A stretch of 64,000 nt of DNA from an uncultured Acidobacteriota bacterium (lineage in GTDB: Bacteria > Acidobacteriota > Terriglobia > UBA7540): the NCBI GenBank assembly GCA_963804995.1, contig CAWDSK010000005.1, positions 544,001-608,000 of the forward strand. Reading direction: 5' to 3'. The position numbers were made by a program, and so were the translations under genes. Below, one piece after another: positions 17,990-64,000 of the stretch (positions are counted from its first letter, which is position 1; every line of letters starts with the position of its first letter). The notes beneath the pieces were generated by a model. It did not search any database, was not told where the DNA came from, and saw only the letters and a program-made list of their open reading frames with translations.

Positions 17990-18420
17990 TACATGTGGGA
18001 CAGCCGGGGTTTCCAATTCGGTAATCAAGTCCGCATCCTCGCCGCCAGCCATCCAGACATTTAGCCTGGATTTCTCCGCACTCGACCTCAATTCGACGTG
18101 GTAGCTAGTGTGGTGTCCCGGTTAATATTTGACAAGGCTGTCCGACCCCCTCACCCCCCAGCCCCTCTCCCCCAAAGGGGCGAGGGGAGAGTTAATTCTC
18201 TTGCCCTCGCCCCTTTGGGGGAGAGGGTGGCTGGCCGAGGCGTTCTCATCAGCCGAGGCCAGACGGGTGAGGGGGTTCTACCCATTGTCAACTCTAGCAC
18301 GGGACACCACACTAGCCTCGAAGCTTTCCGCTGGCGCTCAGGTGTTTTTCGAGCGGGATGTGTCTCTCATGCCGCCGCGACCGGGTAACCAGCACGTCTT
18401 TGATGTCCTCCCCAAGCGCC
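17990..18420 (-). pseudogene. Decayed antitoxin/RelE-like TA pair split by the MITE
   Basis: Removing the MITE gives ...EDIKDVLVTRSRRHERHIPLEKHLSASGKLRG* overlapping (E)ASYHVELRSSAEKS..., a RelE-like N-terminus. Confidence 0.45.
18105..18315. mobile_element. CTAG-bounded MITE, copy 2 (211 bp)
   Basis: Perfect TIR CTAGTGTGGTGTCCCG / CGGGACACCACACTAG; internal CCCCTCACCC...GGGGAGAGGG hairpins. Confidence 0.88.
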
Positions 18421-18441
18421 CTGTGCTACTTCCCGAAAGTG

Positions 18442-18514
18442 ACCCCTCACCCGTCCCGCGCCGGCTGGTGAAAACGCCGGCCGCGGTCCACCCTCTCCCC
18501 TGCGGAGAGGGCTA
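18442..18514. repeat. CCCCTCACCCGTCCCG...CCCTCTCCCC..GGAGAGGG palindromic repeat
   Basis: Same motif as at 49926-49996; reverse-complement relatives at ~29275-29345, ~34553-34623 and ~57306-57380. Confidence 0.75.
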
Positions 18515-18609
18515 TGATTCTCTTTTGGTTGCGGCTCCGCCGCGCTGTGCTTCTTGAGATTGATGATTGTCGCCTTGCGGCCTTTCACATCAGTGGAGAC
18601 GGATTCTGA

Positions 18610-20427
18610 TTAGCCCTGCTTTTGTTCCAGTTCAGCCCATCGAGCATACAGCTTATCCACTTTCTTCTGGGTCGTTTCCATCTGTGCGCATGTGATCTGA
18701 AGCCGTGAGGCGTCGCTCATGACGGCGGGGTCTTCCAGTGTCGCGCGCAAGGCGTTCAGCTCCAGTTCAGCCTCGGCGATCTTTTCTTCGATGGCGGCAA
18801 ACTCACGCGCCTCAAGGTAGGAGAGCTTCCGTTTTGCCGCGGCGGGCGGGGCGCCGTCCGGAGCGACGGGCGTGTGGGGGGCACTGGCCGCGACGTTGCG
18901 TGCGGCTTTCGCTTGCTGCGCGCGCTGCCAAACTTCCCATTGTGAGTAGTCGCCGAAGCGTTCCGCTCCGCCCAAACCATCCAGGCCCAGCACCACGGTT
19001 GAGACCCGGTCCAACATGAAGCGATCGTGCGTGACCAGCACCAGGGCCCCACGATATTCCAGCAGGCTCTCTTCCAGGATTTCCAGAGTCGGGATATCCA
19101 AATCGTTGGTGGGTTCATCCAGCAACAGGACGTCCGCCGGTTGGAGCATAAGCTGTGCGATTAAGACACGCGCCCGTTCGCCTCCGGAAAGCCTGCCCAC
19201 CGTCTGACTGAGGTTGTCCGGGTCAAAGAGAAACCTTGCCGCCCAGGAGGCGACGTGAATCACCTGCTCCTGATAAACGACCGAATCGCTATCCGGCGCC
19301 AGGGCTCGGCGTAAAGTAAGGTCAGGGTCAAGCTCGCGATTTTGGTCGAAGTAGACTATCCGCAACGCCTCAGCCCGGCGAATCTCGCCGCTGGTAGCTT
19401 GAATGTCGCCGCGCAGCAGACGGAGGAGTGTGGTCTTGCCGCTCCCATTCTGTCCCACCAGCCCCACGCGCATTCCCGCCCTGACGATAAAATTCAGGCC
19501 TTGCAACAGGGTGCGACCAGCGATGGTGTAGGCAACGCCATCGAGCGCGATCAACTGTTTGGTTTGGCGGTCCGTGGCGGAAAAGTCAATCTTGGCGGTA
19601 GCAGTGCGGCGGCGGGCGTTCAGGTCCGCCAACTCGCCGATCAGTTCGTGGGCTTTATCGATGCGCGCCTTGGCCTTGGTCCGACGGGCCCGGGGACCCC
19701 GGCGCAGCCATTCCAGTTCCGTATGCACGCGATTGGTAAGGGCTTCCTGCCGCTTCCCCTGCGCCGTGAGGTACTCTTCTTTCTTCTCAAGAAACCTGCT
19801 GTAGTTCCCATTGACCCGAAACAAGCCATCCACATAGACGCGACTAAGCTCCACCACCTCGCTCGCAATATTCTCAAGAAAGTAACGATCGTGGCTTACC
19901 ACCACGCACGCGAACGCTGCGTTCTGAAGCACGGATTCGAGCCACTGAATCCCCGCAAAGTCCAAATGGTTGGTGGGCTCATCGAGAAGCAGGATGTCTG
20001 CCCGCTCGACCAGTCCCTCGGTGATCATCAGGCGTTTGCGCCAGCCACCTGACAAGGCGGTGGTGGGGGTTTCAAAGTCGATAAAACCGGCGCGGCCAAG
20101 GGCCTCGGCGGTGCGGGACACCCGCTCCGCCTGGGGTGCTGCGGTCCGTTCAAGGGCCTTCTCGACGACCGACCTGACCGTCTCCCCTGGCGCAAATTCG
20201 GCCACCTGTGGGACATAACTGACCCTGCTGCGTTTGCGCGTTGCAACCTCGCCACTATCCGGTTTTACGCGCCCGCAGAGAATCTCCAGCAGAGTCGACT
20301 TGCCTGACCCGTTCGGCCCAATCAGGCCAATCCGGTCGCCCTCCGACACGGTGAAGGAAATGTTCTGGAATAGGGAGGTGATCCCGTATCGCTTCGATAG
20401 TCCCTGGGCATTGATGATGGGGGCCAA
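18610..20427 (-). CDS. ABC-F family ATP-binding protein (Uup-like)
   Basis: Two Walker A (GPNGSGKS, GQNGSGKT), LSGG and DEPTN motifs, no TM segments, C-terminal KLSY..coiled coil..RWAELE. Confidence 0.93.
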   Translation of the reverse strand: MAPIINAQGLSKRYGITSLFQNISFTVSEGDRIGLIGPNGSGKSTLLEILCGRVKPDSGEVATRKRSRVSYVPQVAEFAPGETVRSVVEKALERTAAPQAERVSRTAEALGRAGFIDFETPTTALSGGWRKRLMITEGLVERADILLLDEPTNHLDFAGIQWLESVLQNAAFACVVVSHDRYFLENIASEVVELSRVYVDGLFRVNGNYSRFLEKKEEYLTAQGKRQEALTNRVHTELEWLRRGPRARRTKAKARIDKAHELIGELADLNARRRTATAKIDFSATDRQTKQLIALDGVAYTIAGRTLLQGLNFIVRAGMRVGLVGQNGSGKTTLLRLLRGDIQATSGEIRRAEALRIVYFDQNRELDPDLTLRRALAPDSDSVVYQEQVIHVASWAARFLFDPDNLSQTVGRLSGGERARVLIAQLMLQPADVLLLDEPTNDLDIPTLEILEESLLEYRGALVLVTHDRFMLDRVSTVVLGLDGLGGAERFGDYSQWEVWQRAQQAKAARNVAASAPHTPVAPDGAPPAAAKRKLSYLEAREFAAIEEKIAEAELELNALRATLEDPAVMSDASRLQITCAQMETTQKKVDKLYARWAELEQKQG

Positions 20428-20513
20428 GTTGATCGAGGTTCCTCCGGATTTAATAGGGAGGACTAGTGTGACAGATATTTGTCGTTTTGCAGTGATCTAA
20501 TTCGATTACAGCT

Positions 20514-20725
20514 CTAGCGTGGTGTCCCGGTTAATATTTGACAAGGCTGTCCCGACCCCCTCACCCCCCAGCCCCTCTCCCCCAAAGGGGCGAGGGGAGA
20601 GTTAATTTTCTTGCCCTCGCCCCTTTGGGGGAGAGGGTGGCTGGCCGAGGCGTTCTCATCAGCCGAGGCCAGACGGGTGAGGGGGTTCTACCCATTGTCA
20701 ACTCTAACACGGGGCACCACACTAG
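20514..20725. mobile_element. CTAG-bounded MITE, copy 3 (212 bp)
   Basis: CTAGCGTGGTGTCCCG...CGGGGCACCACACTAG, near-identical to copy 2. Confidence 0.88.
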
Positions 20726-21055
20726 CTGGATTCCTCAGCCCGTGGTTGGAAGCGTGGGGCAAGGGAACAATCATGAAGGCCTTGGGGCGTCAGAGGTAGC
20801 GCAGGGCTCGCTTTCCGGCCCCTTCGTTTACCTCGGGGCAGGCTTTGCCGCCCTTCCAGCGCGATGCGATTGTGGCGGCGCGGGCGCAGCCAAGATGTGT
20901 GGGAGAACGAGTTCCGTTAAACCTCAGGCCAACGGCCGGGAAAACGGCACCAACCATTTCGACCTTTGCGCCCTGGAGGGTCGCCTGACTAGTAATCAAT
21001 TGGCTGTACGCCCCCGACGACCTTTTCAACTTCCTTGTCGGCGAGCTGGTTCTTA

Positions 21056-43202: not shown

Positions 43203-43636
43203 TTTTCTTTGATGCCAGCGCCGCGGCCAAAAGATACTTCCAGGAAGCCGGCTCAGACCGGGTCATCCGCCTGTGGAGCGGCACGGAGTTCATCTTTTCG
43301 CTCGCCCTTCTGCCCTGCGAGCTCTTCTCCGCCTTGAATCGAAAACGCCGGGAGCGCGCCTTGCCTCGCGGGGCTTATCCTGCCCTCAAGAAGCAGATCC
43401 GGGAGGATGTGAGCAAGATCCACGCAGTACCCATCCATGCCGAACTCATCGAACTCTCCCTGCGCCTGCTGGATGCGCATCCGCTCAAGACCCTCGATTC
43501 GCTTTACCTGGCGGGGGCATTGGGTTTGCAGCAGGCCCTGAAGGAACCGGTCCTGTTTGTCGCCGCCGACCGGCAAATTCTTCAGGCCGCCCAAGCCGAA
43601 GGGCTGCGCACGCTGAATCCAGAAACTGGGCCCTGA
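43199..43636 (+). CDS. vapC: VapC/PIN toxin
   Basis: IFFDASAAAKRY, E, LKTLDSL and FVAAD motifs; GTGA overlap with the antitoxin. Confidence 0.9.
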   Translation: MIFFDASAAAKRYFQEAGSDRVIRLWSGTEFIFSLALLPCELFSALNRKRRERALPRGAYPALKKQIREDVSKIHAVPIHAELIELSLRLLDAHPLKTLDSLYLAGALGLQQALKEPVLFVAADRQILQAAQAEGLRTLNPETGP

Positions 43637-43881
43637 GCAGGTAGCAGAGGCAGGCGCGGTTTGACAGTTCTACACCGGGAAATGACCGCCGGGGGATGCG
43701 GGTGCAAGGCTTGTCTTTCGGAGTGCGGCGACTCGTCGCCGCTTTTGCTCGCCGCGACTCGTCGCGGCGTACCTTCGCACCGGTGACGAGTCACCGGCTG
43801 CAAAAAGCGGGAACGAGCTCCCGCACTCCGAAAACGAGGCTACCGGTCAGAGCACCGGCGTTGGATGGCCAGGTGAAAGCC
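43636..43881. repeat. 246-bp direct repeat, copy 1 (contains a GGAGTGCG REP pair)
   Basis: Colinear with 44807-45052 at offset 1171, with scattered substitutions. Confidence 0.9.
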
Positions 43882-43938
43882 ATTACACGGGGCCAGATGA
43901 CGAGCCGCGGAGGAGGCCGAAGTACATCCGCCTGTGCA

Positions 43939-44218
43939 TTAGGTTGCAAGCTCACGAGAGCCGTGTTGCAGATGGAGAATTTCCACAAATTTAGGAGATT
44001 CGTTCACGCGGTAATATATCAAGATGGGGGTATGGATCAACTGGCGTACTCCTGGACGCCCCTTAACCAGGCTGCTGATGTAAGGGAAACTCTTGAGGAG
44101 CTCAATGTGATTAAGTATGGCGTCGCCGAACCGCTCGGCGCTGGCGGGAAAGTTGGCCCAAGAATAGGCGAGGATGAAAATCTGCTAACGCGGCTTCTGT
44201 GATTCGAATTTGGGAATC
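43939..44218 (-). pseudogene. ParE/RelE-like toxin pseudogene (no start codon, internal frameshift)
   Basis: Manual translation DSQIRITEAALADF / ILAYSWANFPASAERFGDAILNHIELLKSFPYI..GVRQLIHTPILIYYRV..VEILHLQHGSR. Confidence 0.75.
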
Positions 44219-44358
44219 CTGACGAGCTTCCGAACTTCATCGAGAGGCACGACCCGGCCCGCGTCGGCGTCAGCCGTACCGCGGTCGATCGCTGCCAGGG
44301 TCTTGGCGTCGACTTCAACTTCCTCGACGATGGGTACTTCCAGCTTGAGATCGGTCAT
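44185..44358 (-). CDS. Small antitoxin (partner of the dead ParE-like toxin)
   Basis: LAAIDRGTADADAGRVVPLDEV motif typical of ParE-associated antitoxins. Confidence 0.7.
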   Translation of the reverse strand: MTDLKLEVPIVEEVEVDAKTLAAIDRGTADADAGRVVPLDEVRKLVRIPKFESQKPR

Positions 44359-44502
44359 ACCGTCACAGTACCCCAAGCTGGCGCAGAATGCAAACGCGGT
44401 AGGCGAAGAAAAGATTCACCACAGAGTGCCAGCCCACCGGTGGGCGGGTCCATAGTGGGGGAAACTTGAAGTTTCTGGAGAGGCGCAGAGTAAGAAAGAT
44501 GG

Positions 44503-44718
44503 TCATGGCTGGTGCTCATCATGGCGGGCAGCCACATCGGGTTCGCCGGATTGGTAGCGCTCTCCCAAAATGGCATAAATGCCGTCCAGTTGGCCATTAC
44601 GGTCTTCCGCTTGCGCAACCGGTCGCGGCTCAAACTCCACCTCAGTGCGCTCCGGCAGTTCGACCGTTTCCAGCGGTCGGAATACGCCGCTTTCATAAAC
44701 TGCATGGATCGTCTTCAT
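44503..44718 (-). CDS. AF2212-like (DUF104) antitoxin, orphan
   Basis: MKTIHAVYESGVFRPLETVELPE motif. Confidence 0.85.
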   Translation of the reverse strand: MKTIHAVYESGVFRPLETVELPERTEVEFEPRPVAQAEDRNGQLDGIYAILGERYQSGEPDVAARHDEHQP

Positions 44719-44806
44719 GATCTACTCTTACCATGTCATTTGCGGCAAAGCCAGTTTCTTCTCCGTGTCGTCTCGGTGCCATGACCAGCAGAGTAATGTG
44801 ACTGCC

Positions 44807-45052
44807 AGCAGCTAGCAGAGGTAGGCGCGGTTTGACAGTTCTACACCGGGAAATGACCGCCTGGGGATGCGGGTGCAAGGCTTGTCTTTCGGAGTGCGGC
44901 GACTCGTCGCCGCTTTTGCTCGCCGCGACTCGTCGCGGCGTACCTTCGTACCGGTGACGAGTCACCGGCGGCAAAAAGCGGGAGCGAGCTCCCGCACTCC
45001 GAAAACGACGCCACCGGTCAGACCACCCGCGTTGGATGGCCAGGCGAAAGCC
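44807..45052. repeat. 246-bp direct repeat, copy 2
   Basis: Colinear with 43636-43881. Confidence 0.9.
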
Positions 45053-59449: not shown

Positions 59450-59636
59450 TTCGATAATCCTCCCTTGTCGGATATAAGGCGCTCCGTTATTACAGAGGCG
59501 GGGCGATGCGGGATCCTTAGCTTGCTTGGCGCTTCCTTCCTGGTCCTCAAGCGGGCAAAAGTATACACCTCGGGCGCCCGCTTGCACGTTTTTCTCCTAG
59601 GGAAGGGAAGTGAGTACCCTTTCCTCTCCGCACCGG

Positions 59637-59760
59637 GTAGCACAGGCACTCCTGCCTGTGAATGTGGCATGAGGTTCGAGCGTCAGGACACAGCCAGGAG
59701 TGGCTGTGCTACAACTAAGGCACTCAATCGCAGAGCGGGGCTCGCTCTGCGCCCGCCACC
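59637..59760. repeat. REPIN copy 1 (GTAGCACAGGCACTCCTGCCTGTG..CACAGCCAGGAGTGGCTGTGCTAC plus tail)
   Basis: Four copies in the same orientation at 59637, 60641, 62191 and 62925. Confidence 0.85.
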
Positions 59761-59801
59761 GCTGCGCACGCGCAGCGCCCGCGCCAAAACCAAAACCCTT
59801 G

Positions 59802-60311
59802 CTAATCACCTTTGACGCGGAGACCGAAAGGGCGTGTAGGCCCTTGGGTTTGCGGAGTTGTGAGAGAAATCGTGTAGAGAGCGGTGGACCCTGAGGCGAT
59901 TCCTGTCCCCAGTCCATGCATGACATTGGCAGCCGCATCGAGGTTGGTCAAAGTCTGCGGCGGCCCAAGGCTACCTGAAAGGTTGGATCTGAGGCTGACC
60001 GAAATATCGCCCACATCGTCCTGCGAAACGGAGATTCCAATAGCGTCGTACATTTGCAAGGAGTAGATCGTACTGGGCGGGTTAGTGATCAAGGTGCGGC
60101 CCATCAGCCTCGCTTCGAATGCAATGGGGCACACGAACGCGGCGGGCGGGCCTGGTTGATAAACAAGGGGGCCCGAGGCATAAGCAACCGTCCCCGCCAT
60201 TTCATTCGACGTGAGGCTCACATTCACGGTGACGTACATTGGTGGAGTTAGGTCTCCATATAGCTGGGCCGCGGTTTGGAACAAATCGGAAAAGTAAGTA
60301 AAGTCTCCCAT
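59802..60311 (-). CDS. Hypothetical protein, 169 aa, no family recognised
   Basis: AAGGAGG RBS; Ser/Thr/Gly-rich, beta-strand-like sequence; sits alone between two REPINs. Confidence 0.65.
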   Translation of the reverse strand: MGDFTYFSDLFQTAAQLYGDLTPPMYVTVNVSLTSNEMAGTVAYASGPLVYQPGPPAAFVCPIAFEARLMGRTLITNPPSTIYSLQMYDAIGISVSQDDVGDISVSLRSNLSGSLGPPQTLTNLDAAANVMHGLGTGIASGSTALYTISLTTPQTQGPTRPFGLRVKGD

Positions 60312-60640
60312 TGTAGCTAGCCTCCTTAGAAGAATCGCAGCACACAGCCATCAGGAAATTTAACTAACTTTCTATTTCTCAGTATTGACTCTCTTACACC
60401 TCATGTCAATGGCAGCGCCAAAGGTGGCCAAGTGGCGTCGATGTGGCCCCGTACTCAGCTTTGAGCCTTTCCTTTCTTTTGCGGCTCCCACTCTATGTTT
60501 GTTCCGCGCCCCCCGCCGCTTGCAGCCACAAGCGGCGCGGGGTGCGGATCACGAAAATTATCTGGAACGTCTTGTAACGGCGGGGCTGAAGCCCCGCCCT
60601 TCCGGCAGCCCCCAACACCCTTTAAGCGTGGTGAGAAATC

Positions 60641-60763
60641 GCACAGGCACTCCTGCCTGTGACTGCAGGAATAGGTTCGAGCGTAGGGACACAGCCAGGA
60701 GTGGCTGTGCCATCGCTAGGGCTTACCGGGAAGCGGGCTGGCTCGCCCTGCGCCAGCCACCCG
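60641..60763. repeat. REPIN copy 2
   Basis: GCACAGGCACTCCTGCCTGTG..AGGTTCGAGCG..GACACAGCCAGGAGTGGCTGTGC. Confidence 0.85.
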
Positions 60764-60856
60764 AAAGGACCGAAGTTTCCCCCACCACCGGTTGACACCA
60801 GCGCAGTAGGGCCATAACATTCAAATCACTTGGGGACCCTTACAGGGAGGTGCACT

Positions 60857-62086
60857 ATGATTTCGCGCAGACAATTATTGAGTATGGGCGCCGCGGGATT
60901 AATCCTGCCTTGCAACTCGCGCGCGGCAAGCGGCAACTCTCACTTCTCCGAGGTCGAGCGGCGCATTGCCCACCACGACTTCCGCGGCCTCACCAAGGAG
61001 GACTTGGCCACCCCTTGCCTGATTCTTGAAGAGGCGCTTTTCAAAAAGAATCTTGAAACGATGGCTGCCAGCAACCAAGCCTTAGGCATCAAGCTGCGCG
61101 CCCACCTGAAGGTCCACAAGTGTCCTCAGATTGCCAAACAGCAACTCGCGCTGGGCGCCATCGGGATTTGCTGCGCCACCACCGCCGAGTGTGAGCTCAT
61201 GATGAACGCCGGAATTCATGGAGTCTTCCACTCCTGTCAGCCGGCGGGCCGGAACCAGGTCGCACGAGCCGTGGCTCTGGCGCGCCGCGACCGTACGTTT
61301 ATTGGCGTGCTGGACAACCCGCTCACGGTGGATACCCTGGAGCAGGCGTTGGCTGCGGCTCGCGTGCAGATGAGAGTTTGCGTAGACATTTTCGCAGGCA
61401 TGACGCGCCAGGGGTCGGAACCGGGTGAGCCCGCCCTGCGCCTGGCACAGAAGGTCGATCAGTCGAAACAACTCAAGCTGGTCGGCCTGATGAGCTACTC
61501 GGGCGAAGCCTCCCACACCCACGGGTGGGAGACCCGCCGCAAAAAGTCTGAGGAGCACTTGGCAGGCGCGGTCGCAACCGAGGCGCTCTGCCGAAAATCC
61601 GGGCTGCCCATCGAAATCCGAGCCGGTGGCAGCACCGGAACATACAACATCGACAAGGCGAATGGCCTCACGGAACTCCAGGCCGGCTCCTACGTTTTCA
61701 TGGACACCATCTACCGCAAGATTGGCGGGAAGGCTGACCCGAGCGTTTACACTGATTTCGAACCGGCTCTCACCGTAATGACCACTGTCATCAGCAAGAC
61801 TCATTCCAACCAGTGCGCCGTTGATTACGGCAACAAAGCCACGCTCCGTACCACGGACGAGGTTAAGGGCCGGCCGGGCGTGCGGGTCGAGTCGGGCGGC
61901 GCCGAATACGGCATCTTGCTGTGGAACGAGGGTGATCGCGACATCAAGCTGGGCGAGCTGGTTGAGATCTACCCCTCGAACCTCAACACCAGCGTCAACG
62001 CCTTCGATCGCATCTATGTGGCCCGTGGCGATTCCATCGTCGACGTGTGGCCCATCATGGGCCGCAGCGGTTCCCCGCAACGCTGA
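60857..62086 (+). CDS. DSD1/D-threonine aldolase-like PLP enzyme (fold type III) with Tat-like signal
   Basis: TPCL, LRAHLKVHK, GGSTGT, ELQAGSYVFMD and ALTVMTTVIS motifs; ISRRQLL N-terminus. Confidence 0.88.
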   Translation: MISRRQLLSMGAAGLILPCNSRAASGNSHFSEVERRIAHHDFRGLTKEDLATPCLILEEALFKKNLETMAASNQALGIKLRAHLKVHKCPQIAKQQLALGAIGICCATTAECELMMNAGIHGVFHSCQPAGRNQVARAVALARRDRTFIGVLDNPLTVDTLEQALAAARVQMRVCVDIFAGMTRQGSEPGEPALRLAQKVDQSKQLKLVGLMSYSGEASHTHGWETRRKKSEEHLAGAVATEALCRKSGLPIEIRAGGSTGTYNIDKANGLTELQAGSYVFMDTIYRKIGGKADPSVYTDFEPALTVMTTVISKTHSNQCAVDYGNKATLRTTDEVKGRPGVRVESGGAEYGILLWNEGDRDIKLGELVEIYPSNLNTSVNAFDRIYVARGDSIVDVWPIMGRSGSPQR

Positions 62087-62190
62087 TGCGATATCGCTTT
62101 TAAGCTGGGAACGAACCTGCGTCGCATGGCGCGAAGTCCTTTAGCGCACCAGAGTCAGGCGCAGTTTGTTCTAATCTGCGCCAGCCGGCG

Positions 62191-62316
62191 GGAGCACAGG
62201 CACTCCTGCCTGTGAATGCGGCGCGAGGTTCGAGCCTAACGACACAGCCAGGAGTGGCTGTGCTGCAACTACGGCACTAAACCGCAGATCTGGGCGCGCT
62301 CTGCGCCAACCCACCC
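62191..62316. repeat. REPIN copy 3
   Basis: Same consensus; tail most similar to copy 1. Confidence 0.85.
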
Positions 62317-62333
62317 GTCGTTTGCCTGAGAGA

Positions 62334-62379
62334 TTGACGGGGGGCGCGCATTCGTTTATATTCGTTATGTATACAAATG
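62334..62379 (+). promoter_or_regulatory. TA promoter/operator
   Basis: TTGACG-17 nt-TATATT followed by a TGTATACA-centred palindrome. Confidence 0.65.
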
Positions 62380-62392
62380 ACGGAGCATGATC

Positions 62393-62641
62393 ATGGCTAA
62401 AACACTGACCATGCGGCTGGACGAAAAAACCTATGAGACTTTTGTCCGAGCCGCCCAAGCCGAACGGCGGTCGCTCTCGAACCTGGTTGAAACCGCGGCG
62501 CTGCGGCAGATCCAGGAAAGCCACTTCGTTGACAACGCGGAGATGGCGGAGATCGTCTCACGGCCTGGGCTCGTGAAGCGTCTCAAGGCGGGTTCCCGGG
62601 ATGCCCAAAGGCGAAGAGGCAGGTTCGTTCCAGCCGTTTAG
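62393..62641 (+). CDS. CopG/RHH-type antitoxin
   Basis: KTLTMRLDE..AAQAERRSLSNLVE motif. Confidence 0.85.
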   Translation: MAKTLTMRLDEKTYETFVRAAQAERRSLSNLVETAALRQIQESHFVDNAEMAEIVSRPGLVKRLKAGSRDAQRRRGRFVPAV

Positions 62642-62909
62642 AGTATTCGAAACGCGGCGCTTCCTCGCCGATCTCGCCATCCTGGGAAGCGTTGCACAGA
62701 AGCGGCTTGAAGCCAAGCTGCGTGATTACGTTTACCCCATACTTCGCCAAGCCCCTCACTCCGGCTCGAATATCAAGCGACTGAAGAATTGGGACCCACC
62801 GACTTGGCGCTACCGAGTGGGAGATTGGCGCTTCTTTTACGAGATCGACGAGAGACAGCGCATCGTTTTCATGATCGCCGCCGATCACCGCAAAGAAGCC
62901 TATCGCTGA
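62601..62909 (+). CDS. RelE/ParE-family toxin (true start uncertain)
   Basis: FRVFET..F, NIKRLK, TWRYRVGDWRFFYEID and HRKEAYR motifs. Confidence 0.88.
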   Translation: MPKGEEAGSFQPFRVFETRRFLADLAILGSVAQKRLEAKLRDYVYPILRQAPHSGSNIKRLKNWDPPTWRYRVGDWRFFYEIDERQRIVFMIAADHRKEAYR

Positions 62910-62924
62910 GGCCACAACTGCGCG

Positions 62925-63072
62925 GTAGCACAGGCACTCCTGCCTGTGACTGCGGGGCGAAGTTCGAGCGCGCCGAAACAGCCAGGAGTGGCTGTGCCGC
63001 AGCCAGGGTTTGCCGGGAAGCGGACCGGCTGGCTGGCAAATCGCAGGGCTGGGTTCGCTGTGCGCCACCCGG
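62925..63072. repeat. REPIN copy 4
   Basis: Same consensus; tail most similar to copy 2. Confidence 0.85.
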
Positions 63073-63160
63073 CTGAAGTCACACCCGACCAACGAAGAGC
63101 CGCAGAGTCTCGGAAGGCACGCCGCTCTGCGCTGCTCCTCGTTACCTGCTGAGTTGTAAG

Positions 63161-63178
63161 TATACCCATTTGGATATA
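63161..63178 (+). promoter_or_regulatory. Putative operator of the HigBA-like pair
   Basis: TATACCCA-TT-TGGATATA imperfect palindrome upstream of the toxin start. Confidence 0.55.
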
Positions 63179-63191
63179 TTATGGGAAACGC

Positions 63192-63560
63192 ATGGAGGAA
63201 TCCCCCAAGCTTAGGCGCCTGCATTGGGTAGGGAGCAGCAAGAAGGACTTGCTGGCGCTCCCTGAAGACGTAATTGATGTTTTCGGTTATGCCCTTTACC
63301 TGGCACAAATCGGCAGAAAACATTCCCAAGCCAAGCCGCTGAAGGGATTTGGGTCGGCCGGCGTATTAGAGATCGTAGAGGACTGGGAGGGGAGCACCTA
63401 TCGAGCCGCGTATACCGTGCGTTTTGATCGTGCTATCTACGTCCTTCATGTATTTCAGAAGAAAGCCAAACGCGGCATTGCCACGCCCAAGTCCGATCTG
63501 GATTTAATCCGGCGCCGACTGAAGGTCGCCGAGCTGGCTGCCAAGGAGTTGGAATCATGA
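63192..63560 (+). CDS. HigB-like RelE-superfamily toxin (Gp49/DUF891 type)
   Basis: WVGSSKKDL..P, GYALYLAQ.G, KPLKGFG..GVLEI, TYR and YVLHVFQKK motifs. Confidence 0.9.
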   Translation: MEESPKLRRLHWVGSSKKDLLALPEDVIDVFGYALYLAQIGRKHSQAKPLKGFGSAGVLEIVEDWEGSTYRAAYTVRFDRAIYVLHVFQKKAKRGIATPKSDLDLIRRRLKVAELAAKELES

Positions 63561-63910
63561 AAAGGCAAAGAAACATCGGAGACGTTGGTGTCCAGGAGGG
63601 CAGTGGGAATGTTTACGCTGACTTGGGCTACTCCGATTCTGAGGACATGGCCGTGAAAGCGCAACTGGTCACCAAGATTGCCGACATCATCCGCGAGCGT
63701 GGCCTCACCCAAGAGGAAGCGGCAAAGGTCTTGCGCTTGACCCAACCCAAGATTTCGAAGCTACTCAAAGGGCAGTTTCGGGGAATTTCAGAGCGCCGCT
63801 TGCTCCGCTGCCTGACAAAACTCGGGAGGGACGTCGAGATCGTCGTGAAACCGGCCCCGCGACGGCGCCCTGGCAGGTTGACACTTCTCTTCGCCGCAAC
63901 CGCTCGATGA
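63557..63910 (+). CDS. HigA-like XRE/HTH antitoxin
   Basis: GSGNVYADLG, KAQL, GLTQEEAAKVLRLTQPKISKL and LGRDVEI motifs; ATGA overlap with the toxin. Confidence 0.9.
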   Translation: MKRQRNIGDVGVQEGSGNVYADLGYSDSEDMAVKAQLVTKIADIIRERGLTQEEAAKVLRLTQPKISKLLKGQFRGISERRLLRCLTKLGRDVEIVVKPAPRRRPGRLTLLFAATAR

Positions 63911-64000
63911 GTGAGCGGCTTTCCTGGGTCGCGAGGAGCGGACCGCTGTTGGGGCAGGCTGGCGCAGACCCCAAAAGGCGCGGTCCTGCGCCAGCCTGCG

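Follow-up and report, generated by a model that had tools for sequence, protein, structure and literature searches.

Introduction

Chromosomal integrons, and the clusters of attC sites lacking an integrase (CALINs), string together cassettes of one or two genes separated by direct structured repeats, and some of these are toxin–antitoxin (TA) cassettes that bring promoters of their own. It is poorly understood how TA modules of the chromosome spread and come to have new neighbours when they possess no mobile element (PMC13617665). We analysed an array of four gene units punctuated by four repeats of one orientation at the right end of a 64,000-nucleotide stretch from an uncultured Acidobacteriota bacterium (assembly GCA_963804995.1, contig CAWDSK010000005.1, positions 544,001 to 608,000), referred to as the window. 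The repeats are REPINs, head-to-head pairs of repetitive extragenic palindromic (REP) sequences of the kind associated with REP-associated tyrosine transposases (RAYTs). We give an about even chance (a probability of roughly 0.5) to the reading that the four units arrived, and are reshuffled, by recombination inside the same-facing repeats, as the PeSL (promoter early stem-loop) cassettes of T4-type phages are.

Excerpts of eight papers were compared (PMC3333891, PMC3184786, PMC8266576, PMC3733652, PMC3390384, PMC13141974, PMC13617665, PMC2839356), and statements that cite them refer to these excerpts. The window repeats resemble REPIN-RAYT systems, or REPtrons, in having GTAG/GTGG-headed head-to-head hairpins, intergenic and dispersed placement, and a flanking HUH tyrosine transposase gene in congeners (PMC3333891, PMC8266576, PMC3733652). 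The difference is that in those systems the REP or bacterial interspersed mosaic element (BIME) unit is itself mobile, and the excerpts describe no genes carried between REPINs (PMC3333891, PMC8266576, PMC3733652). Their one link to TA modules is that the E. coli REPtron, BIMEs included, was found replaced by hicAB (PMC3333891). The mobile and strain-specific genes of Pseudomonas are located in REP deserts (PMC3390384), which is the opposite of the window.

Four same-strand REPINs and their tails

The window corresponds to C5:544001-608000 of the assembly, G000 (7.55 Mb, 9 contigs, 58% GC, 92% complete). The 6695 genes of G000 were called with a simple script of our own, and each F-numbered repeat family is a profile model, the models having been derived from 235 intergenic 16-mers of high abundance; both are rough, and the counts that depend on them carry that caveat. 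Congeners were represented by 28 genomes unless stated otherwise.

The four REPINs are 76 nt each, lie on the same strand and start at 59637, 60638, 62191 and 62925. The earlier note on this DNA had described four direct-oriented REPINs as the punctuation of the array, and this was confirmed, with the start of copy 2 placed at 60638. In all four copies the left arm is CACAGGCA-CTCC-TGCCTGTG, the right arm is CACAGCCA-GGAG-TGGCTGTG and the loop motif GTTCGAGC is invariant, giving the architecture of a head-to-head REP pair. Folding of the plus strand was better than that of shuffled sequences (z from -3.0 to -4.5). The chance that 4 of the 48 copies in the genome fall inside 3.4 kb on one strand was roughly 1e-5. 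The features are as follows:

59637..59712, + strand, REPIN copy 1, GTAG...CTAC intact
59713..59765, + strand, tail 1, linker and second REP hairpin (the latter on the - strand, of the family that flanks two intact RAYTs in G000)
60638..60713, + strand, REPIN copy 2, both terminal tetranucleotides altered
60714..60765, + strand, tail 2, linker and partial second REP
62191..62266, + strand, REPIN copy 3, GGAG...CTGC
62267..62322, + strand, tail 3, resembling tail 1
62925..63000, + strand, REPIN copy 4, GTAG...CCGC, 15 nt past a toxin stop codon
63001..63075, + strand, tail 4, linker as in tail 2 and second REP

Both terminal tetranucleotides are intact only in copy 1; they read ATCG/CCAT in copy 2, GGAG/CTGC in copy 3 and GTAG/CCGC in copy 4. 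Copy 1 and most of the dispersed copies have the two head-to-head palindromes, each with a 5′ GTAG/GTGG, that define the REPIN class. The earlier description of the repeats as GTAG-type REPs holds in that they are REP doublets of RAYT type, but not for their ends, since only copy 1 keeps both GTAG termini. Pairwise identity among the four REPINs was 61-68/76, compared with a mean of 67 to the rest of the family. Recent local duplication was therefore rejected, the copies being no more like each other than like their family.

Each tail consists of a linker and a second REP family in reverse, resembling the hairpin that precedes an intact RAYT at C2:467478; this tail family is the REP upstream of two intact RAYTs elsewhere in G000. 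The tails had been thought to alternate in type. Tail 1 was indeed like tail 3 (similarity score 29), but tails 2 and 4 scored only 20, not above the score of 1 versus 4, and their common linker was judged by eye.

TA arrays with direct spacers in the genus

TA arrays were found at other loci of G000 and in congeners. One type of array has as its spacer a GTRG-headed hairpin or REPIN (often with the window arm), followed by a 62-bp core (F227) and a closing hairpin. Arrays of this type reach about 13 modules in 11 kb (G005), about 8 (G017) and 6 (G013), and hold MazEF, three ParDE types, Uma2, MNT-HEPN, RelE-HTH and other modules in species-specific order. In the 62-bp-core arrays, the intervals that hold genes were bounded by direct repeats in 83 of 83 cases from up to 17 genomes, counted after merging duplicate genome labels. 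Moreover, the 44 cargo clusters common to at least two genomes kept a single polarity in 144/144 placements, 100 of them non-trivial; polarity was fixed within a cluster and differed between clusters, some running one way and some the other. The loci had been picked because they contained the repeat or one of the array modules; this biases what they hold but not how it is oriented. Fixed polarity, changed order and all-direct spacers are what would be expected from looping out and re-entry at repeats; independent repeat hopping would give mixed orientation.

The left flank of the 62-bp core tracked the upstream cargo (mean score 14.5 versus 8.4) and the right flank the downstream cargo (20.7 versus 8.9), while the core tracked neither. 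The exchanges were therefore placed in the spacer. Linkage of single-nucleotide polymorphisms within the 62-bp core revealed no single crossover site. Where a cargo ends, the GTRG of the hairpin that follows is reached at a near-constant distance, even across hairpin families. No recognisable integrase or RAYT stood beside the arrays in the gene maps made, and an Rfam search of three array loci gave only sub-threshold matches to miRNA hairpins. In congeners, 14 close pairs of the window REP arm were picked by spacing; judged by Pfam, 7 of them enclosed a TA pair, a TA-like gene or a defence gene. The F227-core arrays are better test objects than the window array. The loci are:

L217 (G005:C17:403000-418000), L207, L206, L209, L322, L329 and L106 (G000:C2:349900-354300), the clearest TA arrays with the 62-bp F227 core
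L109 and L110 (C6:1495-1499 kb; C2:228-231 kb), L112, L115 and L121, further G000 TA arrays, each with its own repeat type (F111/F134, F36, F42/F88/F112, F5/F74)

Spacers often held the last 60-70 bases of one module's helix-turn-helix (HTH) antitoxin gene (L158, L159, L206, L210; G000:C1:276711, C2:759478), and pieces of cargo have thus been copied together with the repeat. An insertion-sequence-like element ends at TTAA just before the 62-bp core at G000:C2:21701 and C2:354288, and may target the spacer.

Repeats around TA modules in G000

Four Pfam searches gave 103 toxin matches in G000, which were merged to 101 modules. A GTAG-type repeat was present in 60/84 of the gaps between large genes that hold a toxin, compared with about 30% of comparable gaps, and the excess appeared in 4/5 length classes. 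The non-coding flanks of the modules were then compared by model-free alignment; 73 modules had both flanks of at least 100 nt and 28 were dropped for short flanks. Direct-repeat flanks were found on 15/73 modules and inverted ones on 3/73, counts that are not independent events because the modules of one array share repeats. Direct flanks were rarer in all controls: shuffled TA pairs (97/8190), single large genes (79/1973), multi-gene blocks (23/1012) and other small genes (41/657). A wider count (32/104 direct, 6 inverted) is biased upward, its seeds having been taken partly from arrays, and the 15/73 count is preferred for that reason. The flanking repeats came from many families. TA genes neighboured F227 in 13/19 gaps, F111 in 16/31 and F134 in 9/12, compared with a baseline of 255/3761 (6.8%).

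Same-family pairs less than 10 kb apart were direct rather than inverted for the window REPIN (14:0), F227 (22:0) and F111 (16:0), the last two being TA-linked. At 10-300 kb the ratio was near even, and the commonest REPs were near even at all distances. A replication-strand cause of the short-range bias was rejected, because the bias vanishes at 10-300 kb. The two flanks of a TA module were mutually best matches in 5/22 modules, with 1.8 expected by chance, and the flank matches of the three enclosed window units ranked 11, 7 and 20 of about 40. That module flanks are rarely mutual best matches, and that the window copies are no closer to each other than to their family, fits donor-plus-target copies better than local duplication.

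At 18142-20726 of the window, a 175-nt direct repeat (98% identical) surrounds an ABC-F-like ATPase gene, and a hemB-like gene at C6:1795773 is also direct-flanked. A group II intron-like element is present in G000 in about 39-40 copies that are nearly identical. A repeat core shared with G000 matched 49 stretches of the genome collection, all titled Acidobacteriota, Acidobacteria or Terriglobia.

The same repeat-TA-repeat pattern had been reported at 42.7-45.1 kb of the window, beside a RAYT remnant. This region is a parallel case, with a RAYT remnant and enclosed TA fragments, but other repeat families are involved: there are three, all different from the window REPIN, and one of them flanks the remnant. 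A 246-nt direct repeat of the third family (43636-45052, 235/246 identical) surrounds ParE and antitoxin fragments, and the Phd-PIN pair is not between like repeats. The family of the 246-nt repeat also flanks the RAYT at C6:1617148.

The gene units of the window array

The following features lie between and beside the REPINs:

59802..60311, - strand, orphan open reading frame, 169 aa, no Pfam family
60381..60409, - strand, sigma-70-like promoter match of the orphan
60574..60598, + strand, hairpin lying between the promoter match of the orphan and REPIN 2; its repeat family is unrelated and very abundant (from sequence and very high contig depth)
60792..60820, + strand, sigma-70-like promoter match of the DSD1-like gene
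60857..62086, + strand, DSD1/D-threonine-aldolase-like pyridoxal-phosphate enzyme, 409 aa
62334..62362, + strand, promoter match of the CopG-RelE pair; homology to congeners stops at, or a few bases upstream of, the -35 box
62393..62641, + strand, ribbon-helix-helix (RHH)/CopG-like putative antitoxin (Pfam match below cut-off)
62601..62909, + strand, ParE/RelE-family toxin (Pfam)
63094..63136, + strand, hairpin belonging to a third REP family and immediately preceding the HigBA promoter
63154..63182, + strand, promoter match of the HigBA-like pair
63192..63560, + strand, Gp49/DUF891 (HigB-like) toxin
63557..63910, + strand, HTH_37 (HigA-like) antitoxin
63936..63998, + strand, hairpin of a fourth REP family, 3′ of the HigBA pair

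By Pfam, the four cargoes are of no family, Ala_racemase_N plus D-ser_dehydrat, RHH-like (sub-cut-off) plus ParE, and Gp49 plus HTH_37, and their genes run in both directions. All four units had a sigma-70-like promoter match (5 matches, compared with 1.3 in shuffled sequences), and the matches sit in the cargo, outside the repeats. The claim of unrelated cargo with its own promoter signals in at least three units was thus borne out, and the cargo proved accessory as expected, being found at other sites in relatives. No fifth REPIN was found 3′ of the HigBA pair, which is bounded by the other REP families at 63094-63136 and 63936-63998. The patchwork of repeats and small genes extends about 3.7 kb past the window.

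In 13 genomes the CopG-RelE pair was found at 15 places, and its upstream neighbour was different at each of the 15. It adjoins the 62-bp-core spacer type in five congeners, and its right end lies 13-14 nt from the hairpin, counted after the stop codon, in G007 and G022, compared with 15 nt in the window. Judged by these sequence contexts, the pair of the window is a member of the congener array pool. Among the window units, it alone has a repeat-abutting end in common with relatives. The spacing between a REP end and the CopG -35 box was not constant in the close relatives; it was 12-39 nt where it could be scored, and in several there was none.

The remaining units gave fewer connections. 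The orphan was found in 0/28 congeners and has a single database homologue, 40% identical; its Atlas matches were all below 0.8. For the DSD1-like gene, 1/28 congeners had a close orthologue (74%), with no REP adjoining. A 90%-identical copy in a metagenome stands among different neighbours with no REPIN, and the homology spans from about 10 nt before the promoter match to about 19 nt past the stop codon. The HigBA pair was found at 6 places in 6 genomes. In L022 (G013) and L029 (G008), it lies across the ThuA-isomerase-oxidoreductase block from its place in the window, and this switch suggests a local hop or a circular permutation. The ThuA-isomerase-oxidoreductase block is to the left of the window array. 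It is kept in about 15 congeners, none of which has the array, and the DNA at that position varies.

The REPIN family and its likely RAYT

The window REPIN family has 48 deduplicated copies in G000, partial ones included, which are dispersed and mostly single. The left REP arm was present in 22/28 congeners; the exact REPIN variant was found in 0/28 at E 1e-10 and gave 0 matches in the metagenome scan. None of the 14 Y1_Tnp genes of G000, or their remnants, is flanked by the window REPIN, and a first hunt over these 14 loci and 30 congener loci did not find the cognate RAYT. A likely one was then located by matching the coordinates of REPs and RAYTs in four congeners. There, a RAYT-like gene is flanked by, and carries in frame, REPINs with both window arms; the copies of G002 and G008 are open, those of G013 and G019 broken. 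The G002/G008 protein has an HUH-type motif and scored 62-69 bits against NF047646, short of its cut-off of 80. Searches of the remaining 24 congeners, the array-rich G005, G017 and G043 included, found no cognate RAYT, and neither did those of G000, where the best matches were 26-35%. The search for a cognate enzyme proposed earlier was therefore successful in part, with a likely enzyme intact in two congeners and none in G000. Because the RAYT-like gene of congeners is flanked by and contains both arms, the window REPINs are of RAYT type, and the cognate enzyme appears to have been lost from G000 or to be unassembled there.

The RAYT-like gene (L320:5290-6027 in G008; L319:641-1294 in G002) adjoins type I restriction-like genes, and those of G008 also hold REPIN inserts. 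At G000:C9:29369-29775, a gene-less unit of the window REPIN together with another REP and a linker is repeated in tandem three times, with a period of about 166 nt, and adjoins a RAYT fragment. In several congeners, direct REPINs of the window family stand between tandem paralogues of a MacB/FtsX permease (L091, L098, L326, L336).

Explanations of the array

If recombination inside the same-facing repeats is correct, a unit would be excised as a loop together with one repeat and would reinsert where a further copy of that repeat lies. RAYTs would have spread the repeats originally, leaving them as portable homology of 60-200 bp. The exchange itself may be the work of host recombination, by RecA or by slippage during replication, and RAYT nicks might prime it; recA is present in G000. 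Host recombination is favoured because the cognate enzyme is missing, the REPIN ends are damaged and families with intact RAYTs show no direct bias. From the known behaviour of type II TA modules, addiction would slow their loss between deletion-prone repeats, and TA modules would pile up there. Of the four units of the window array, only CopG-RelE gives the recombination reading a firm case, and different routes may have brought the remaining three.

Several results weigh against recombination inside the repeats. The DSD1-like unit has no adjoining REPIN in relatives. The composite of REPIN and tail was seen only at the window locus, in 0/28 congeners, and there is no known donor with that spacer. 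Operon ends in the genus also swap neighbours, with 9 distinct ones among 12 upstream of the flanking oxidoreductase gene and 11/13 elsewhere; because ordinary operon ends do so, altered neighbours alone prove little. REPs were present at 36/68 neighbour-change breakpoints and at 6/26 conserved joints. The same cassette end meets different hairpin families across species with about 7 bases in common, so homologous recombination explains the change of hairpin poorly, and an exchange of hairpins across a shared end of 7 bases points to an enzyme or to microhomology. Direct repeats also flank some core-type genes. The expected enrichment around TA genes holds genome-wide for modules bounded by direct repeats, but not for the window REPIN variant, whose right arm (3/36 gaps) is beside TA genes no more than ordinary gaps are and whose left arm stood at 7/43, against 255/3761. 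The earlier note would have abandoned its proposal if REPINs flanked core genes as often as TA genes and gene order were conserved; the former was found for the window variant. Finally, no circle, empty site or close-strain deletion was seen in public contigs, which come from distant relatives. Four sequencing runs were covered, with a best share of 0.07 and no RNA run among them; their contigs were all from relatives, and two pieces of run X1 (288 nt with 4 differences, 151 nt with none) suggest a near strain at low depth. Joints between REPIN copies were considered as deletions and rejected, because their sides are 20-24 nt with other letters between; they are likely other repeat copies.

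Alternatively, a RAYT acting in trans could peel off single-stranded cargo between same-strand REPs and paste it beside another REP, which we regard as possible but unlikely. It would equally predict direct orientation and fixed polarity, and the near-fixed distance at which cassette ends abut GTRG, although the next hairpin changes family, speaks for it. So do the RAYT-like gene with exactly the window arms in G002 and G008 (broken in G013 and G019), the tail hairpin shared with the REP upstream of two intact G000 RAYTs, and the cleavage and strand transfer by TnpA-REP near REPs in vitro (PMC3333891, PMC8266576). However, the cognate RAYT was found neither in G000 (92% complete) nor in three array-rich congeners, 3/4 window REPINs have altered terminal tetranucleotides, and the families with intact G000 RAYTs (F87/F94, F63, F71) show no short-range direct bias. 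Moreover, the most constant part of the TA arrays is the 62-bp stretch between the hairpins. A REP/RAYT cassette system had been proposed for this array. Its direct-repeat TA modules with species-dependent order were recovered, but a RAYT moving the cargo was not supported. The wider idea, that domesticated RAYTs and REPINs form an integron-like system in which promoter-to-stop modules are excised and pasted, building chromosomal arrays of a dozen or more TA cassettes, is put forward tentatively and with more doubt than belief.

The array could also be a by-product of plain colonisation, in which an accessory hotspot was filled by unrelated routes and REPINs hopped in later, short hops keeping their orientation. 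The family is dispersed mostly beside ordinary genes (5/48 copies beside a TA gene), and repeats are abundant in G000, with more than 200 intergenic seeds and at least one repeat in 1567/3810 gaps between large genes. The site upstream of the oxidoreductase differs among the mapped congeners, the DSD1-like unit and HigBA occur elsewhere without the window REPIN, and TA modules cluster in high-turnover spots (PMC13617665). It leaves unexplained the 83:0 orientation and the species-specific order drawn from a shared module pool. Local hops would give closer copies than those observed (61-68/76, against a family mean of 67), and common REP families are about 50:50 in orientation at the same distances. 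We consider colonisation rather improbable, and it keeps real weight because a repeat-abutting end was traced for only one of the four units and no donor of the composite is known. A chromosomal integron or CALIN with unusual attC sites is, by comparison, highly improbable. No IntI was over the cut-off in G000 (TIGR02249 gave 12 partial matches, the best 78 bits against 265, at 92% completeness), and no RYYYAAC...GTTRRRY pair 40-150 nt apart was found on either strand of 59600-64000. The window repeats match a RAYT-flanking REP and the cargo points both ways. The motif scan and the congener RAYT that carries the same arms thus bear out the view that the repeats are RAYT-type REPs and not attC sites.

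Comparison with known systems

A search of full-text literature, which misses most subscription journals, found no description of TA arrays spaced by REP composites. The arrays link the spread of TA modules with the host role of REPs and RAYTs in a form open to testing, since the modules can be named, the spacer is defined, an enzyme is at hand as candidate and the predictions are clear. Even under a plainer mechanism, REP composites would be cassette joints for chromosomal TA arrays. If a RAYT cassette system were true, RAYTs would gain a job and chromosomal TA modules a transposon-free route of movement.

The layout and TA-rich cargo resemble superintegrons; the differences are that here there is no IntI, there are no attC core sites, and cargo stands in both orientations. 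As in Photorhabdus, dozens of TA modules per genome are clustered in short-lived neighbourhoods (PMC13617665). The dif modules of Acinetobacter plasmids (pdif, XerC/XerD) are likewise small shuffled modules from a shared pool in which TA modules are abundant (PMC13141974). They differ in having short Xer sites in alternating orientation, and their modules invert (PMC13141974). Here, the spacers are hairpin composites of 130-200 nt in one orientation and no inverted module was seen, although no search was aimed at Xer sites.

The PeSLs of T4-type phages also have non-essential single genes between direct stem-loops of about 100 bp, which recombine through the repeats without a dedicated integrase (PMC2839356). 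PeSL repeats carry a promoter and a terminator (PMC2839356), whereas here the spacer consists of a REP composite and each cargo contains a promoter match of its own. Moreover, PeSLs belong to phages, hold ORFan cargo and have demonstrated mini-circles (PMC2839356), whereas these arrays are in a bacterial chromosome, carry mostly TA cargo and gave no circle in the contigs of distant relatives. The feature by which PeSL shuffling is recognised, genes flanked by direct repeats and reordered among relatives, was found in the 62-bp-core arrays, and in the window only CopG-RelE was traced. By this analogy, the arrays most likely work like PeSL modular shuffling.

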